Source of the DNA: Trichodelitschia bisporula
Taxonomy: Eukaryota
DNA length: 64,000 nt
Direction: 5' to 3'
NCBI GenBank assembly: GCA_010356995.1
Contig: ML996688.1
Span: 434,001-498,000 of the forward strand
A program made the translations under genes and the position numbers. Shown here one piece after another: positions 11,404 through 20,700 of this stretch. Below the pieces are notes generated by a model. That model had not been told where the DNA came from. It did no database searches and saw only the letters and a list, made by a program, of their open reading frames with translations. The stretch's first letter is position 1, and each line of letters begins with the position of its first letter.

Positions 11404-12978
11404 CTACTCCTCCCCCGGCGCACTCGCCCCCCTTGCAACCAACGCCCCAAGCGCCGCGCCAACTCCACTCCCATCCTTCGCAATCCCCACTCGAATCTTC
11501 CCCTCCCTCTCCCCAATCCCCTCCAGCGCCAGCCACACCTCCCTCATCCTTTCCTCGAACCCAGGATAGAACTCAACGAGACTGCCATCGACGCCGACGT
11601 CTACGATCTCATCCGTCTCTAGCCGACCGGAATGGATGGCGATAGCACCGATAGCGACAGCGGCCAGGCGAGCGGCGCGCCGGCCGACGGCACCAGCGAC
11701 GCGTTGTACGGCGCGCGCGGCGCCGACGCTCGTGCCTTCGACGCCGAGGTCGCGCTCGAGGGACTGCCGCGTGAGGGCGAGGGAGGGCGATGAATCGCCG
11801 GCGGCGGTGGACAGGAGCGCGGAGTCGAGGGCGAAGGGCGTGAAGAGGGGCGCGTCGGGGGCGACGCGGGCGGTGGAGTGCAGTTCCGTTTGGCCGGAGA
11901 AGAGACCCGTATCCTCTTGGTGCAGGGCGAGGAGCGCGCGGCGCAGGATCTCGCCGAGGAACATACCACTGACGCGTTTCTCGAAAAGCTGCATGCCGGG
12001 GTTGACCGATTCGGTGTCAAGCTCGCGGTCGAAGCGCGTTGTGGGCAGGGTGGCGAGGGCGTTGTCGAAGGAGCCCCATTCGGTGTTGACGATCATGTCG
12101 CCGGTTGAGGCGTCGTAGTCGGCTTCCTTGTTTGCGGATAGCTTTGTGAGGCGCGACAGCTGCTCGACGTAAGCGCCGTTGGTGCCGGTGCCGAAGATGG
12201 CGCCGAGGAGGGTGCTGGTTTTGCCGGGGGAGGTGTAGGAGCGTGCCATCAGGGTGCCGACGGTGTCGTTGATCAGAGCCGTGATGCGCACGGGGAGGTG
12301 GAGGGCATCAATCTCGGCCTGCAGGAGTGCGCAGATGTCCTTGCCCAGCGCGTCGGGGATGTCGTACCCTTTGGTCCAGCGCATGAGGAGGCCCCTGTTG
12401 ATGCCGATTTGGTGCACGGGGAAGGAGAAGGTGAAGCCCATGTGAAAGATTTCTTCTTCTTCGATGGCATCGCGACCCGCGGCTTTGACCTTGCGCTTGA
12501 CGCCCTCGTAGTGGTCGCCGTGGTGCTGTTGGAGGAAGAGCTCGACTTGTTTCGCGAGGAAGGAGAAGAGCTCTTTGGCGGTTTTGGCTTTCTGCAGGCT
12601 TTGGGGGACCTTGACTTTCGTCTGCTGAAGCTTGAAGGTGCTGTCGCCATTGAGTTCGATAGAACACACGCGGAAGTTGGTGCCGCCGAGGTCAACGGCC
12701 ATATACAGTCCCTGTTATGGTCAACCTCAGTCCAACATCTCCACGATGAACACACCTTTTCTGTCCCATTCGGCACAGCCGTCACATAGGTCGGGATCTG
12801 AGCCATACTGGTGCCATCCTTCTCCAACCCCTCATCTCTTCCTGTCAGAAAAGGCTCACGGAATATATTCTCAAAGCTTACCCATCTCCCTCAAAAACTC
12901 ATCCACAACCTTCTGCAGATGCTCATCCTTGAAGTCAAAGTCCTCCACCACCCGCTCCACAGCCTTTTCCAGCACCAT
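11404..12978 (-). CDS. GLK1: Glucokinase (hexokinase family)
   Basis: QIPTYVTAVPNGTEKG, AVDLGGTNFRVC, GFTFSFP, INDTVGT, GTGTNGAY, DGSGVGAAL. Exons 12978-12882, ~12835-12756, 12711-11404. Confidence 0.96.
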
Positions 12979-15051
12979 ATCGGAAGCCCTCGTTTGCGAA
13001 AGAGTATTCACACCCCAATGGCGAACCGAAGGTCGTCCCGAATCGTCACCACGTCCGTAAGGCTCACACGTCCCACCACCAAAGAGCCGATCCGCAAGGC
13101 AAACGCGGTCACTAGGATCGGTTACCGTAACCGGCGAATAGTACGCAGGAGTTCGAGCGTCACGGAGTTTGACCTGCACGCGCGAGAACAAAACTTGAGC
13201 GAGGAGAACGATGACGACAAGGGCGAGGAAGACAACAGAGCGCGGGAAAGGCAGGAGACGGCGCTTCGAATGCGGGGGGCGCGACTTGTAGACCAGGTGT
13301 TTACTGGTTGACGTCAATGGTGCGCGAAGCTTGTAATCCTTGCCGTGCTGAGCGGGGGTTATTGTAGTCTCGTCGGCGGGAGAAGAGGGATCTCGCCTGC
13401 GTGGGAGCAGCGAAGCTATGGTGGGCACGATAGCGGGGCGCGCGGAGCCCTGAATCAAAAGACGGCGGCAAAAGGTGATGGGATAAATTAGTACATCCGT
13501 AGGAAGCGGGGGGATAGGTCACGATGAAGAGAAGGAGAGGAGGAGGTCGAGCACAGAAAGAAGGAAGGCAAAGCGGGGTAGGCTTATTGTGTGACGCAGT
13601 ACCACCCTACACCAGGCTGTGGAATGAGGTCAGAACAAGGTGATCTTGCACATGGGATCTGGGAATCGAATGCACTGCAGTTTTTTTCAAGTTCGCCTTG
13701 CCTTGCTTGCCTTTTGAACCCAGCATCAATCACTTGATACTGAAGAAACGCACCCACTCCGTACTGCTGAACATGTCAGCTTCCTAGGCCGTCGTGCGTA
13801 CTCACTATCGGTAGCTCCTGTTGTTCTGCCCTCATTGCAACCGCACTATGTACATCTCACGGCTGGTGGAGAGTGGATGGTACCATACACGATGACATCG
13901 TCTTCTCGAGGAGACCGGGGTCTGCCTGCCTGAGTACGCAGTAGGCGGCTGAAAGAGCGCGCTTTGTTCCGGCGAAATTCTCGTCACTCTGCGAGCTGCT
14001 GCACGTCGACAAAACAGACATCAGTGAGATGGCAAGAGGGCAGATATATCCTGCCCTCGCATTACTCCCACTTTCCCATATGTACACACACGCACTTGCG
14101 CCTCTTGTGCCTCCAAACTAACCTCCCCCACACACACCACGACAAGTCTAAAAGGCGAGTAGTCCGAAGGAGAGAAGAGGCCTACTACTGTACGAGAGAG
14201 CGTTCCGACAGACACAACAAAGGAAAATCCTGGTGAATTATGCACGAGAAATGAGCTTTCATTTCCCCATCTCCGAAAGCCTCCATCTTTGTGCCATGTC
14301 CCACCCTTTGCTGTTCTCTCCCACAATGCACACACATCTCCAGCATACGGTAGCCTTTCAAACATGCTCCAGAAAAACAAATTCGGTTACCGGCTCGCCC
14401 AAAGCGAGACCCAACCAACCCTTTCAAGTGTACTCGAGCATCTCCATACACATATAGAGATGCAAGAAAAACCCCCACAATCAATATGTCAATGCATCTG
14501 TGCCCTTCGCGCCCTACCCCCGAGTGGCCGGCTAACCGGTGCTGTGGTATTCGACGTAACTCTGCCAAATATCGGCGAAAAGCAAGAAAAACGCGAAGCA
14601 AGTGGAAAAAGGCTCCTGCTTCCTCAAAAAAGTCCCGTTTTCGCGCCAGATGTATGAAAGGGATGGCTCGACAATCCCGTCAAGCCCATCCTCGTATGTA
14701 CGTTTGAAAAGACACCCGCCTTGTGTTGGTGCGTGGAAGAAAGCAATAACAGAGCTCGCAAAATGACCAGTCCGGTGCTGCCGCCCTGTCTCCCATTCAC
14801 ATTCACTACAGTCATTAGCAGTCGCATCCAGAGCGCAACTGGCCGCCCGTGAATTGCCGCAAAGGCCTCCAGGACAATTAAGGATTATGGACAAAACAAA
14901 AAGCATGGTAGACCGATGTGGTCTCCGGGGTTCCCGCTGAATGCAATAGTGAATCATGACTCCGGCCAAATGGGGAGAAGACCAAGGACAAAGGAGATAC
15001 GAGAAGGCGTGAGTCGGATTTTCGTGAGATCTAAGAGAGAAGTGGTGTCGG

Positions 15052-17733
15052 CTATGCCGCAAGGACTTGCCTAGGCGGGAGTCCAAGACTGCTATTCGCA
15101 CTGCTGTTCGACGAGTCGATACGCCCGCTGGCGCCGCTGTCCCCACTCTCGGCACTGGCGCTAGCACTGCCGGTCAATGAGCGGTCTCCAGGCTGCTTCT
15201 GCGGATACAGGGAGCCGATGTGCTGCTCAACAGCCTGAGGGGCAACTGCGTTGCCATGTCCGGGAGGATGGCGGGGAACTGGCTGTCTCATGCCAGGAGG
15301 GGACGGACGCCCGCCGGCAATTCCGTTGGGGTACGGCCCGTTGGGGTATGCTCCGCCGTGTTGGTAAGGACCACTACCATTAGGGTAGGAAGCTGAAAAC
15401 CCGTTCGGCGGTGAAGGCCGCTTCGGAGGGCCGAGCGGGTTCCCGGGAGAAGCGCTCTGGCGTCGAGGAGGATAAGGACCGTGCTGGGCATTTCTTTGAA
15501 TTTCTTCAAGTCTAGTGGAAGTGAGGGAATTCTGTCTGGATTCCTGACCCATCGCCGCGCGATCCACATTGCCGTATCTGTTGGAAGAGTAACCAAGCAT
15601 GGGGTTGTTCATCAGACTGTCATGCAGACCGGGAACGTCCGCCATCAAGCGAGTGCTCGTCCGATTCTTGTTCCGCATAAACAGATTCCGACCACGAGAC
15701 GACACAGGCGGGTTGTCATATCGGAGGTTGGCATTTTGTGTGCTCGGCCCCTTACGATTCCGGCGCGACGTGATGCTCATCATGTCGAAGTTCTCGTCCA
15801 TTATGGCAGGGTTCGGAGCACGAGCCATGTTCGGGTCGATGAAATCGTCGTCATCCTCGTCATCTTCAAATCCCGTCTGGACAGGAGGAGGACCCGGCCG
15901 TCCGCGCGGCGGAGCACGTCCCATAGCCATTTGTCGCTCCCGCAACTCCAATTCTCTTTGACGGAGCTGGAGCTCACGTTCCCTCAATGCCAAATCCGTT
16001 GTCGACGCGCCGTTCTGCATCGGCCCCTCGGCATAGACACCATTCAGCGTCTCAGAAGCGCCTTCAGGAATGTTGTCGTAGAGCATCAGATGGCTGAACT
16101 CTTCCAGGTTATCGCCCTCGAGTGAACCACGATTTGAGGGACCAGGCCCATGACCGTTAGGGATACCGTTCGGGATGCGGGGACCGTAACCGTTAGGCTG
16201 CGGTGGACCGCGCCTCATTGCGCTGGGAGGTCCTTGCATTGATGGTGCGCGTCCACGGCCCATCCCATTCATCGGACCGTTGCCATTCATGACCGGCCTG
16301 GCATATCCAGCAACTGAAGATGACCGCGGTGGGGGCTTGACGCCAGGCGAAATTGGCGGTCGGTTCGGCTTGTTCGCGTTCTTGTAGCGGAGCAGGGCGT
16401 ACAGAGTCTCTAACCGCGGAACAGAAACCCCAGCTTCCCGCGCCAGCTTGACCGGCGAACCAAGGTAAGTCTCAACTTCCATCGGCCGACCGGCAACGAA
16501 GTCCTGGTACATGACGCCGTGAACTTCTCCAGGGCGGATCATATTCTCCATGGTTGTCTCCTTGAAGTCTGGCGGAAACGTGCAACCGTTGGCGGCTGCA
16601 ACTGCGAGGAGCTCGTCAATCGCACCGTTCACGATATCCCGCACACCGACAATCTCTAATAACTCGGCATGATTAGGGCACTCAAAAAGGACGCTGGCAG
16701 GGTGGAAGGCGATGGGGCTAGAAGCATGTTAGACCAGTTCATAATTGCAGGGAGCCAACCATACCCAATGACTCTCTCAAACTGCTGCTGCCGAATGTTT
16801 TCGGACACAGTGCAGTTAACGCGACCAGTGGTCAACGTCATCGCCAGAGCTTCTGCCATGTCCCGCTGAATGGATTCCGGTATCCGCGAGTTCTTGTTTG
16901 CCCAGCCAACCGAGATGTCCGTTGCTGAACCACGATGCTCGAATTGGTCTGCGCCCAGTTGTGCGAGGTCGGCACCGCAAACGAGTGACAGGACAACATT
17001 TGTGGGAAAGCGCTGCACCAAGTATTCCTCCACTCCGAGTGACGTCGTCGTATTGAGGAGAATGCACGTGTGTTGGGGCGTGACAACCGGCTCGATGATT
17101 TTGGCGAGGTCGTAGATGTCAGGTAGGGCTTTGACGCATAACAGCACATAGTCGAAAGGGGACTTCGGGTTATGTGACGCTTCCTCGGTAGACTGAATGA
17201 CTGCACCACAAGGTTAGGAGGCAAAGCAGGGCTGAACGGAGTACCAACCTGAGTGAGGTAGAAAACGCTCATTGCCCAAAGCCTGGGACCTATTCGCACG
17301 TGGTTAGGACTGCCAGTGAGCGCGACCGGGTAACTCACTTCATGGCAATGCCATACTGGGCGACGGCCTCATACTGAGCCTTCCAAACCAAAGTTACATC
17401 GCAAGCGTTCGTGGCCTGGAGTCGCCATGAGAGAAAGGCCGATACAGCATTCCCGCCGACTACACAATATCGATTAGTCTCAGTCATGGCTGTCTGGAGC
17501 TCAACAGTGGTTGACGGGTGGTTCGAGGATGGAGGGGTGAAATGTGGTTTTGGGGGAGTGAAGTGAACCGCCAGTCTTTGCAGGAAGGCGAAGACGGGCT
17601 AAAGCGGAGCGGCTAGGCCTGAGAAAAGTGGGGATGGACAAGCCGATCGTGTTTCTTTTCGCACGATTTGCGAGGTGGTCGGGGTCTTTGACATACCTGA
17701 GAGTATGCGCAGCCGGGGCGCGGTAGGTGCCAT
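15052..17733 (-). CDS. Ketopantoate-reductase-like (ApbA/PanE fold) protein with long Pro/Gly-rich disordered tail; Svl3/Pam1-like
   Basis: LRILSVGGNAVSAFLSWRL Rossmann start, FDYVLLCVKALP, MYQDF..GRPMEVETYLG. Exons 17733-17697, 17459-17339, 17289-17249, 17200-16765, 16717-15052. Confidence 0.88.
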
Positions 17734-20700
17734 TGTATGTTCCGGATATCAGAACGGAGGAGGCAGGTGTGCCGCCTGTACCGGGAGGATGGGGAGGAGT
17801 GAGAAACCCAGGCAACTCTTTCGATGTTTCAACGAGACAATTCGCCCGAGCGGAGCTTATCAAAGCCGATGGAGGAGGCCGATGCGTATCTTGGAGGCTG
17901 ACGGGCCGGAGTTGGAAGTGGAGTGTTCCTGGGTCCAGCTACCGCCTAACGAGGCCGGGAAATTGCGAGATCTAACGAGTGACGATTGCGAGGAACGACG
18001 ATGCGATTGTGTACTTTTTCGGCCTCCAACTGTCCACCAACAATTGTACCTGAGGATCCACGAGGTTTTGTCCGAGGAATTTTTTGGGTGGTGAGGCGGG
18101 TTTAGGAGAGAGAACCCTTTTTCGCGCTGGGGGGCTGGTCGAGGTTGAGTAGCTTTTTTTCGGGTGAGAGGGGGGGGTGGGTGCAAGATGATGTCTTGGA
18201 TGGCGGAAGACGGAGGCTTGGTAAGGTGAGTCGAGGATAGGTTTTGGGGGCTTGGGTGTGAGTGGACGACAGGCGGGTTTGAGTGGGGGGGGGGTAGAGG
18301 TGTGAAGGAAGGAGGGAGGTGGGATGGGAGGAGGGAAGTAGTGTCCTCCGTAGCAGCGGCCCCAACCAAGGAACACTTTTAGGTCGGAAATCGGGGGTAT
18401 TGGGGCGAGGTGGAGCTAGGAAGTGTGAGGAGATTGAGATGAAGTGTTTGGGTTTTGGCGGGGGTGAGTTGGCGTAGGTACAGTTTTAGTGGGGTTTAGG
18501 AGGTTGCGAAAGTGTGTAGGGATGGTGGAAATGTAAGAAAAATGAGGGAGGGTTTTTTTTTTTGGAGGTTGGTGAAGTTGGTGATGAAGAAATAATAAGG
18601 GAAAGGGCCCCTCTCCTATTTTCACTTGATACCCCCTGCTTGGAGTGTGGTGAAGTGGCAGATGGGACCTTCCGCGTGTTGTGAATGGGGTCGCAAGGGT
18701 GAATGGAGGGGACAAGACAACGAGTTTGTGTCTCTTCAACGGTCGTGAGAGCCACAGGTTGGAAGGGAAGACAGAGGCAAGTAGTGGGGAAAGGCAAGTC
18801 TGGGGCTGAGGCAATTGGACCAGGGAAGGGGAACGTGCGTACCTTGAAGCGTGGGTGAATGTTTACCTCGAATAGGCTGGTTTCGTAGACTGTGACGACA
18901 CTAAGGGCGAAGGAAGATAAAGTGGAACATGTGGCTGTGGTGGTTGCAGGTTGAACTGAGGAGACGGCGGTAAGTGATAGTTGAGGTGGAGGTTGAGGTT
19001 GAGCTCGTTGAAGTACAGTTTTAGAGTAGAGCAAGCAAGAGCAATGCGCCGAGTGAGGTGAATGAGGTTTAGTGGGAGCTTGATGTCGTGAGATGCCGGA
19101 AGCTCCACATCCCAGAACTATGCGCGGGAAGCCGAGAAGACGAAGAAGAAAGGCTTGTGCAGAAAAGCCGCGTGCACTGTACACTGCACTATCCTACGGA
19201 CTTCGCAGCTGTGCAGAGAAAGCTTGTGCTTCCTTTGTCTCCTCTCTCGCGGATGTCTCGCCGATTGTGCAGGGCAATGATTGCGAATCCCCTTACTACC
19301 GCAAACGAGAGTAGTGGTGGCTGGCGGTCCGTCTTGTGGGCATGTACCTATGCGTACAATGGATGCCAATAATGCGTATCGTCTCTGTCTCGTCGAAGGA
19401 AGCGAGAGAAAACCGTGGAGCGAGCGACGGTGACAATAATGACAACGAGGAGGAGCGAGCGATTGTGGAGAGGAAAATGAAGAACACGACAGCGAACAAG
19501 CAATCTACTTTTGACTTCAAGAACTGCGAACCCGCAAATGTTAAAAAGGCACCCGCCAACCGAGCCAGAAAGCTTCGAAAAGAGGGAGATGTTGCTGGCT
19601 GCTGCAGCCGCCTCCTGCTTGCTGTTGGGGGGAGAATCATCAACCAACGGATGAGAGGCGAAAAGATATGCCTGCGGCTGCTAGCCAGCATGTTCACAGC
19701 CTCCGTGTGTGTGTGGTATGTTTCTGCGTCTCCCGTCTCTTGTCTCCCGTTTCTTGCCTTCCATTAGGTTGTCTCTCCCTCAATTCACTCGTTCGTCGAC
19801 TTCGCTGTCCTCTCACAGTCTCTCTTCACACTCGCTGCCTGCCAACGCCTCGTCCAACTCTTCTGCCTTCTCAAGCCGCCGCCATCCCGCTATTGCCTGG
19901 GCTTGTCAGCTGCAGGAGCAAGCCAAGATCAGAGACAAGAAAGGCTGGCGCGGACCCTTTCCGATGGAAGAATTCTCTTGAAAGCTTTGGCCGGTTACTT
20001 CAGTACGATAGATTATTCGCTGATCCTTGCGCTACAGTTACCAACTTAGCACCCTGCTTCGCCGCCGTCTTCTACGTGTTTGTCCCCATTTTTTTCCCAA
20101 CTCTCCTTCCGCGGGGGGGAGTTGACCGAAACGGCAAGCTAACGACTGCAACGGCCGCCGTCTATCACTATGTAGCATCGCCAAACGTACTTAATCTAGC
20201 TTCAGCTTGCCCGACCCCTTTGCTCCACCGCGTGGACATACTATGACGCAGGAGAGGGAAACATTGAGTCCCCCGCATGAACGGTCGCCCAAAAAACCAC
20301 AGTCGCGATAACCAAGCAGCTCAGCCTTCATCTCCGTGATTTGTCCCCGGATAAACGCACGCACCTCCTTTGATCGCAGCTTTGGCCCTAGTCTGCATTG
20401 CGCGCGCAGCCTGCAGCAACCGGATTGCCCAAGAGAGAAGCAGGAATCTGCAATAGGGAAGTCGGGGGTTCGGTACTTTCGTGCTGACGCCCTTTCGCCC
20501 TGCGGCTTGCCAGCCCCCAAGCTGCACTCCAGGAAAATCGGGGCCAAAGGAAGAAAGAAAAATAGGAATTTTGGAGACATGGGATACGAATGGAGAATGT
20601 CCACCTTCCCGGACCCCTCCGGCTCCACGTCTCACCAAAGGGCTGACCCTATCCAACAGATCCAACCCCTCCAACCCCTCGTCAATCACGTTTCGATTGA

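Follow-up and report, generated by a model that had tools for sequence, protein, structure and literature searches.

The 64,000-nucleotide window analysed here (contig ML996688.1 of the Trichodelitschia bisporula assembly GCA_010356995.1, positions 434,001 to 498,000 of the forward strand) carries a glucokinase gene on its minus strand, at window positions 11404-12978, and upstream of it a long leader that lacks ATG and stays open in the kinase frame. The translation of exon 3 contains both hexokinase domains (PF00349 at 1.6e-54 and PF03727 at 4e-73, Pfam) and is 100% identical to P0001, a protein named T. bisporula by its source. The matches after P0001 have 56-67% identity and cover 95-100% of the query; several carry the name glucokinase in their sources. 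Judged by these matches, the gene is an orthologue of the fungal glucokinases (GLK1 type). The public model P0001 (452 residues) begins at MAQIPTY in exon 2 and misses the conserved exon 1 (32 codons). Exon 1 from ATG 12978 is backed by spliced contigs and by all orthologues. The transcript data are assembled contigs of two runs (X1 and X2) from one sample of one study; the RNA label of the runs is a guess, and we took the contigs as complementary DNA (cDNA) because both GT-AG introns are absent from them. The coordinates of the gene, of its leader and of the parts encoded in the leader are collected in Table 1.

Table 1. Features of the glucokinase locus of T. bisporula, in window coordinates (ORF, open reading frame).
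Feature	Position	Strand	Basis or remark
Nearest upstream ATG, out of frame, reading ATG TAC TAA; upper edge of the ATG-free leader	13488..13496	-	sequence
Open in-frame leader, 180 codons, encoding the N-terminal extension	12979..13518	-	sequence, shuffles, alignment, cDNA contigs
Candidate near-cognate start AUA (CCCACC AUA GC)	13417..13419	-	61 codons before the helix; predicted isoform of 641 residues
Candidate start CUG (AAACAC CUG GU)	13294..13296	-	20 codons before the helix; predicted isoform of 600 residues
Basic patch KSRPPHSKRRLLPFPR, N-terminal flank of the helix	13240..13287	-	sequence; charge count
Predicted transmembrane helix VVFLALVVIVLLAQVLF, with the conserved Gln of the family	13186..13236	-	Kyte-Doolittle; alignment
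Further Cys of the linker	13101-13099	-	sequence
Cys motif GGGTCEP in the linker	13060..13080	-	alignment; Cys codon at 13068-13066
Main AUG (TCCGAT AUG GT), predicted start of the soluble 494-residue glucokinase	12976..12978	-	equals the nearly invariant internal Met of the long forms (M148, alignment A2)
Coding exon 1, MVLEKAVERVVEDFDFKDEHLQKVVDEFLREM plus one base	12882..12978	-	tblastn to orthologue exon 1; splice joint 12882/12835
Intron 1, 46 bases, GT..AG	12836..12881	-	joint present in both runs
Coding exon 2	12755..12835	-	cDNA contigs
Intron 2, 44 bases, GT..AG	12711..12754	-	joint present in both runs
Coding exon 3, both hexokinase domains and stop codon	11404..12710	-	ORF, Pfam, identity to P0001

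On the minus strand the glucokinase frame is open from stop to stop between 13518 and 12871 (215 codons), the in-frame stop closing the leader upstream being a TGA at 13521-13519. From 13493 down to 12979 ATG is absent in all three frames of this strand. The earlier note on this DNA had described 180 open codons ahead of ATG 12978, the absence of AUG from every frame between 12979 and 13493, a basic patch, a 17-residue helix (13236-13186), a linker with two Cys, an in-frame AUA in strong context at 13419 and an in-frame CUG at 13296; each of these is indeed found in the sequence or in its translation.

When the 540 bases of the leader are shuffled 20,000 times with dinucleotides preserved, frame 0 is open in 1.0% of the shuffles, at most one ATG occurs in 4.6%, and both happen jointly in 0.05%. 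The leader contains 13 stop triplets, for 14.2 expected from composition, distributed as 0, 7 and 6 in frames 0, 1 and 2; the chance that none of 13 falls in a given frame is (2/3)^13 = 0.005. In a codon-usage test frame 0 reaches 0.04 bits per codon. The reference values are 0.18 +/- 0.10 for coding windows and -0.25 +/- 0.14 for non-coding windows, 2.8% of which get as high as 0.04 (the model was trained on 12 long frames of the window, some of which may not be genes). This places the leader inside the range of coding sequence and higher than 97% of the non-coding windows; its codon usage is weakly coding-like.

The helix encoded by the leader has a Kyte-Doolittle mean of 3.2 over 17 residues, the highest among all the sequences compared. 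The Gln at its end is nearly invariant in the family (Q75, alignment A2) and stands in the context LLAQVLF in the window. The Cys motif of the linker reads DGGTCESP in the metagenome locus L009 and DQDTCESP in the protein P0123. No match of the 180-residue extension to any Pfam family was found. For P0028, an orthologue with the extension, an AlphaFold2 model built from 25 sequences is poor overall (mean predicted local distance difference test, pLDDT, of 55; predicted template modelling score, pTM, of 0.54). In this model the extension segment forms a single helix at residues 57-80, with block pLDDT of 87 and 72 and flanks below 50; the fold is too poor to judge docking of the linker on the kinase.

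We then compared the glucokinase with its orthologues, taken as the 120 best database matches. Exactly at the Met equal to ATG 12978 begin 34 of these 120, while 26 have more than 100 residues ahead of the conserved IPTYV anchor. Among these 26 long forms, 22 hold a 17-residue hydrophobic stretch (Kyte-Doolittle 2.19-3.14) and 4 begin inside the helix; 22 database models begin the extension with ATG. The named long forms of the 120-best set belong to Venturia, many Pleosporales, Lophium and the eurotiomycete Rasamsonia. They include Venturia effusa P0017 (717 residues), Lophium P0120, Rasamsonia P0068 and, in the Pleosporales, P0038, P0057, P0064, P0065, P0077, P0084, P0091 and P0097. A profile made from 14 extensions retrieved 15 proteins, candidates being crowded out, and added the long forms of Xylogone (leotiomycete, P0123) and Seirophora (lecanoromycete, P0126). 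The extension thus occurs in orthologues of four Pezizomycotina classes. The kinases of the long forms are orthologous (58-62% identity) and share the helix, the Cys motif and the internal Met.

The extension is too divergent for sequence search, and its homology therefore rests on the alignment anchored on the kinase. In this alignment the parts found in the window follow the order of the family: basic patch, helix with Gln, Cys motif, T-x-x-x-T/R-x-x-S-M, and Met. By this comparison the extension is not peculiar to T. bisporula; it is old in the glucokinases of Pezizomycotina and has been conserved in them. Because it is homologous to the N-terminal extension of the orthologues, the open leader would not be a product of chance.

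Some protein models depart from this scheme. P0025, P0052, P0115 and P0127 begin at a Met inside the helix (MVIAIVLQ...) and P0058 begins with V. In the models that begin inside the helix, the annotated start is probably just the first in-frame ATG that the gene caller met in an open leader otherwise lacking AUG; this Met is also a possible third start in the species of P0025, P0052, P0115 and P0127. P0075, a transcript-derived model, has at residues ~130-200 an apparent retained first intron (...AFISQMSLSSSSSCHSH...), after which the kinase sequence resumes.

The leaders themselves were compared in metagenome loci, 23 of which encode orthologues. Exon 1 was located by tblastn in 21 of them and, L023 having no upstream DNA, 20 loci are informative. 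In 18 of the 20, between 94 and 246 codons are open upstream of the conserved Met and the helix is encoded. L009 also keeps the extension, interrupted inside the helix by a short canonical intron with the frame kept on both sides. The extension is thus present in 19 of 20 loci and absent only in L017, a distant match (49% identity). Of these 19 loci, 18 lack an in-frame ATG in the open stretch. The in-frame ATG of L001 lies 142 codons before the helix, where close relatives have frame-breaking indels. The intron of L009, a leotiomycete-like orthologue, extends over L009:3480-3560 and reads GTGAGT ... CTAAT ... TTTTAG.

The 19 loci represent 8 lineages, two of which include relatives close enough for a test of selection. 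Over the last 100 codons before the Met, L001 and L002 differ at 7 sites (3, 0 and 4 at codon positions 1, 2 and 3), and the ratio of nonsynonymous to synonymous differences, each per available site (pN/pS), is 0.13. Indels are missing from the 300 bases that precede the Met in this pair, while the next 400 bases upstream have 13-16 gap events. L021 and L018 have 32 differences (6, 6 and 20) and a pN/pS of 0.21, with a single indel of 36 bases in the extension and 11 gap events, mostly not multiples of three, in the upstream flank. Because of these two pN/pS values and of the indel pattern, we conclude from the comparison that the extension is read as protein in lineages without an AUG for it.

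In the T. bisporula lineage itself, conservation of the extension is seen in its motifs. The leader could be a relic, that is, the upstream start of an ancestral membrane isoform would have been lost and the frame and helix would persist undecayed in what is now a long 5' untranslated region (UTR). Such a relic would agree with the lack of any in-frame ATG as far as the stop at 13519-13521, with pN/pS values that come from other lineages than T. bisporula's own, with the weakly coding-like codon usage and with the fact that ATG-free 5' leaders are normal for UTRs. But the AUG-less state is found in 8 other lineages and the two testable ones have the low pN/pS given above; therefore the absence of an AUG does not mean loss of function in the glucokinase family. 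In addition, all 13 stop triplets of the leader lie outside frame 0, the helix is the most hydrophobic among the sequences compared, and the conserved Gln and the Cys motif are kept. We regard the loss of the upstream start as unlikely.

ATG is rare in these leaders whatever the frame. In 18 of the loci with the extension, the first ATG met on going upstream from the main AUG, whatever its frame, is 343-698 bases away, and farther out the ATG density is normal; L006 has none in its 364 available upstream bases. Between a point 20 codons ahead of the helix and the main AUG, the count of ATG is 0 in 8 lineages; the sums expected are 19.3 by base composition, 10.9 by dinucleotide shuffles and 8.6 by shuffles of codon order. 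The window is the sole lineage significant alone (P = 0.03-0.05). Likewise, 6 of the 3088 extension residues of the 26 long forms are internal Met (0.19%; 4 of the 6 lie within 18 residues of the annotated start), vs 1.89% in the kinase body, a tenfold depletion. The main AUG has a purine at -3 in 12 of 12 sequences: A in 11 metagenome loci, and G in the window, which also has G at +4. This avoidance of ATG fits a leader that, as the sequences suggest, 40S ribosomal subunits must cross to reach the main AUG.

As to where the extension would start, among the in-frame near-cognate codons that precede the helix AUA 13419 alone combines A at -3 with G at +4. This codon aligns near the AUG of P0075 (MAPLN) and the UUG-GCG of L002 and L012, residue alignment across lineages being unreliable in this part. 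CUG 13296, with C at -3 and G at +4, resembles in context and helix distance the CUG that lies 17 codons before the helix in L018-L021. AUA 13419 and CUG 13296 are, on this evidence of context and alignment, the best candidate starts. Being near-cognate codons, both would be weaker starts than the main AUG.

The relatives too have conserved near-cognate codons. Cluster A carries a conserved in-frame UUG (GCAGCA UUG GC), 42 codons before the helix and 28 bases downstream of the last frame-breaking indel. L012 has a UUG in GCCACA UUG GC at the same helix distance as in cluster A (42 codons), and L014 a CUG in CUCACG CUG GC, 44 codons before the helix. The AUG of P0075 aligns with the UUG of L002 and L012. 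L018 and L021 differ by a 2-base indel located 23 bases upstream of their shared CUG (then GCG), with no AG in between; in L018 this CUG is the sole near-cognate codon between the in-frame stop and the helix. No hairpin downstream of the candidate starts, as expected for structure-assisted initiation, was found in six 86-base stretches (z from -1.03 to +1.11).

The contigs that have both splice joints continue without a joint through the leader, to 13467 in X2 and to 13880 in X1. Assembled transcripts therefore contain the leader in unspliced form, with both AUA 13419 and CUG 13296. In X2 the glucokinase contig ends at 13467 and the next one begins at 13756; such a gap in cover is no evidence on the transcription start site.

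A long isoform could also start at an ordinary AUG, in an upstream exon or on a longer transcript. A well-formed possible intron within 13450-13835 (minus strand) has a donor GTGAGT at 13805, a branch-like TACTAAT at 13494-13488, a pyrimidine run and a CAG acceptor at 13452-13450, so that ATG 13835 and its 30 bases (MRAEQQELPI) would join the extension in phase, as a mini-exon. An intron inside the extension does exist in L009, and in clusters A and C an AG that follows the conserved UUG or CUG at a short distance is a possible acceptor. Yet both contigs read straight through CAG 13452-13450, their only joints being the two known introns, although rare forms may drop out of contigs. Moreover the in-phase join has one chance in three of occurring anyway, L018 and L021 offer no AG between the frame-breaking indel and the CUG, and the AUG of P0075 stands exactly where its relatives carry UUG. 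A long isoform started by an ordinary AUG thus appears quite improbable to us.

With moderate confidence we favour, from the sequence comparisons, a long glucokinase isoform that would begin at a near-cognate codon (AUA 13419 or CUG 13296), with leaky scanning to AUG 12978. The glucokinase mRNA would have a leader of ~450-500 bases, AUG-free and open in the kinase frame. A minority of the scanning 40S subunits would initiate at a near-cognate codon, most likely AUA 13419, which has the optimal context, and/or CUG 13296. Their product would be a long isoform of ~600-641 residues with the basic patch, a very hydrophobic transmembrane helix and a Cys-containing linker. The majority would scan on, unhindered by AUG in any frame, to AUG 12978 and yield the ordinary soluble enzyme of 494 residues. 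In the course of evolution the extension would have been started by AUG in some lineages and by UUG or CUG in many.

A near-cognate transmembrane isoform with leaky scanning was also what the earlier note had proposed. The frame, the helix, selection and ATG avoidance now add comparative support to this proposal; for T. bisporula itself we infer upstream initiation, the codon used, the leaky-scanning ratio and the function of the helix. The note had asked whether orthologous leaders conserve the open frame and the transmembrane helix, which they do in 19 of 20 informative loci, and whether selection holds the extension below neutrality, as it does in the two related lineages. It had also envisaged that the leader is spliced out, or joined at CAG 13450 to an upstream exon. 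The spliced cDNA contigs carry the leader intact and neither of them has that joint.

Several observations weigh against initiation at a near-cognate codon, or reduce the force of what supports it. The window has 11 ATG-free gaps of at least 400 bases (both strands), and 58 of its 3666 stop-to-stop frames reach 180 codons. Long ATG-free gaps and open frames are thus common in this GC-rich window, and therefore the case weighs on comparative data and not on shuffle statistics. The codon-usage test partly restates the openness of the frame. These same gaps and frames also speak for a chance origin, in which the leader would be an ordinary long C-rich 5' UTR that happens to be open in one frame and to read as hydrophobic. 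The extension alone is moreover without a database match: phmmer against 1.84 billion protein representatives gave 0 matches at an expectation value (E) <=0.001, and a word search among longer proteins with the 215-residue frame also gave 0. However, a chance origin has to face the joint shuffle probability of 0.0005 and the parts that match the extensions of orthologues in order and spacing (helix Gln, GTCEP, the motif before the Met), and we hold it to be very improbable.

Further reservations about a near-cognate start concern the comparative data. The anchored alignment of the extensions is at 18-33% identity, and the long forms started by ATG are automatic gene models. The pN/pS values cover two related lineages, and the closest orthologue of T. 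bisporula has ~66-67% identity. Depletion of ATG per lineage has P of 0.03-0.61 against composition-preserving shuffles, only the sum being significant. The contigs cannot give the transcription start site and may miss rare forms; that of X1, which extends to 13880, takes in several ATGs farther upstream, among them 13496 and 13653. As a near-cognate codon AUA is one of the weaker, and by our estimate ~0.5 in-frame near-cognate codons with A at -3 and G at +4 are expected by chance among 94 codons, for one seen. Lastly, the Lophium-like locus L016 has, in the region of L016:3343, an out-of-frame ATG (TCA TGG, Ser-Trp) 40 codons before the helix. It sits in a part conserved as protein with Lophium P0120 and is an exception to the ATG-free rule.

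The charge of the flanks bears on how the predicted helix would be inserted. In the window the net charge is +5 in the 15 residues before the helix vs +3 after it. Averaged over 33 sequences, the 15 residues before the helix carry +2.4 and the 15 after it +0.9; the N-flank exceeds the C-flank in positive charge in 23 of the sequences, matches it in 6 and falls short of it in 4. By the positive-inside rule this favours an extension with its N-terminus in the cytosol and a kinase domain across the membrane, as in type II proteins of the endoplasmic reticulum. The count likewise favours the type II topology that the earlier note had guessed. A basic segment followed by a helix is also, by analogy, the layout of a mitochondrial stop-transfer signal, and the helix may alternatively be an organelle tether facing the cytosol, as in plant type-B hexokinases. 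A far-reaching version of our proposal is that a membrane-inserted glucokinase isoform exists across at least four classes (Dothideomycetes, Eurotiomycetes, Lecanoromycetes and Leotiomycetes), that it is often made only from UUG, CUG or AUA with leaky scanning, and that its kinase, to judge from the positive N-flank and the conserved Cys shortly after the helix, resides inside an organelle, the lumen of the endoplasmic reticulum or the mitochondrial intermembrane space. Taken as a whole, this version seems unlikely to us.

Hexokinases with membrane-binding N-termini exist outside fungi. Mammalian hexokinases I and II have an N-terminal hydrophobic segment that binds membranes; in plants the anchor is at the extreme N-terminus of the product of a separate gene, with a normal AUG. 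Plant type-B hexokinases such as Physcomitrella PpHxk2 are reported to carry an N-terminal membrane anchor (PMC3045890). The likeness is an N-terminal hydrophobic segment on an enzyme of the hexokinase family, beside soluble forms. In contrast to the plants, both forms would come from a single glucokinase gene, with 20-61 residues ahead of the helix. The flank charges (N-flank more positive in 23/33) point to an orientation opposite to that of an outer-membrane anchor facing the cytosol. No sequence likeness of the extension to plant anchors was found by phmmer (0 matches at E <=0.001, 1.84 billion proteins), and by sequence comparison the glucokinase extension is an analogue of the type-B anchors, not a member of their group.

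In yeast, non-AUG upstream starts of ALA1 and GRS1 add a mitochondrial targeting signal. The glucokinase would resemble them in having a weak non-AUG upstream start and a strong AUG on one mRNA, with isoforms sent to different compartments. In contrast to their cleavable presequence, it would have a transmembrane helix with a conserved linker; a bipartite mitochondrial signal may apply.

The nearest known case is cpc-1 of Neurospora crassa and its Pezizomycotina homologues, which have an N-terminal extension initiated at near-cognate codons (Ivanov et al. 2017, PMC5487733). Both genes have a long leader open in the main frame. Further likenesses, which for the glucokinase come from relatives of T. 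bisporula, are near-cognate codons that are conserved and favourably placed (A at -3, G at +4) and purifying selection in the extension (PMC5487733). In both, automatic annotations sometimes include the extension with its start left unsettled, and the extension is old within Pezizomycotina and confined to them (PMC5487733). They differ in that cpc-1 has two AUG upstream ORFs and reinitiation, whereas the glucokinase leader is AUG-free and fits plain leaky scanning, and in that the product of cpc-1 is a transcription factor and here a metabolic enzyme would gain a membrane helix (PMC5487733). Initiation was demonstrated experimentally for cpc-1 (PMC5487733), and for the glucokinase it is predicted from sequence. 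The mechanism would be of the cpc-1 type, with a membrane helix as what it adds.

The long Pezizomycotina glucokinase models start at ATG, whereas no T. bisporula model includes the extension. We found no study of these long models in the literature, nor any paper on a membrane-bound or non-AUG fungal glucokinase; the list of Wei et al. 2013, reportedly a survey of N. crassa leaders for conserved near-cognate extensions, and the supplements of papers were outside this search.

Glycolysis begins with glucokinase and hexokinase, which in filamentous fungi are linked to carbon catabolite repression and are treated as soluble enzymes of the cytosol. If true, a conserved transmembrane isoform would give sugar metabolism or sensing in fungi a further compartment and would parallel the organelle-bound hexokinases of plants and animals, of independent origin. 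It would also be a clean natural case of isoform control by a non-AUG start behind an AUG-free leader, in which the upstream start switched between AUG, UUG, CUG and AUA in evolution. A kinase domain inside an organelle would imply compartmentalised hexose phosphorylation or glucose sensing, which is not known to have been sought in fungi. Glucokinase gene models are inconsistent across genomes, and annotation pipelines that require ATG systematically miss the long isoform.

Upstream of the glucokinase, on the same strand, lies a ketopantoate-reductase-like gene (15052-17213) with ApbA and ApbA_C domains and a Pro-, Gly- and Asn-rich tail of ~440 residues. Past the stop of this gene the cDNA contig that covers it goes on for ~1.2-1.3 kb, to 13756 or 13882; the cover of 13756-15052 may stem from a very long 3' UTR or from another transcript. 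Nowhere in the window is ATG absent over a longer distance than at 17733-18930 on the minus strand (1197 bases). This stretch holds several overlapping open frames rich in Pro, Ser and Thr on a strand with 39% C and 15% G, and its lack of ATG is probably due to this C-rich, G-poor composition.

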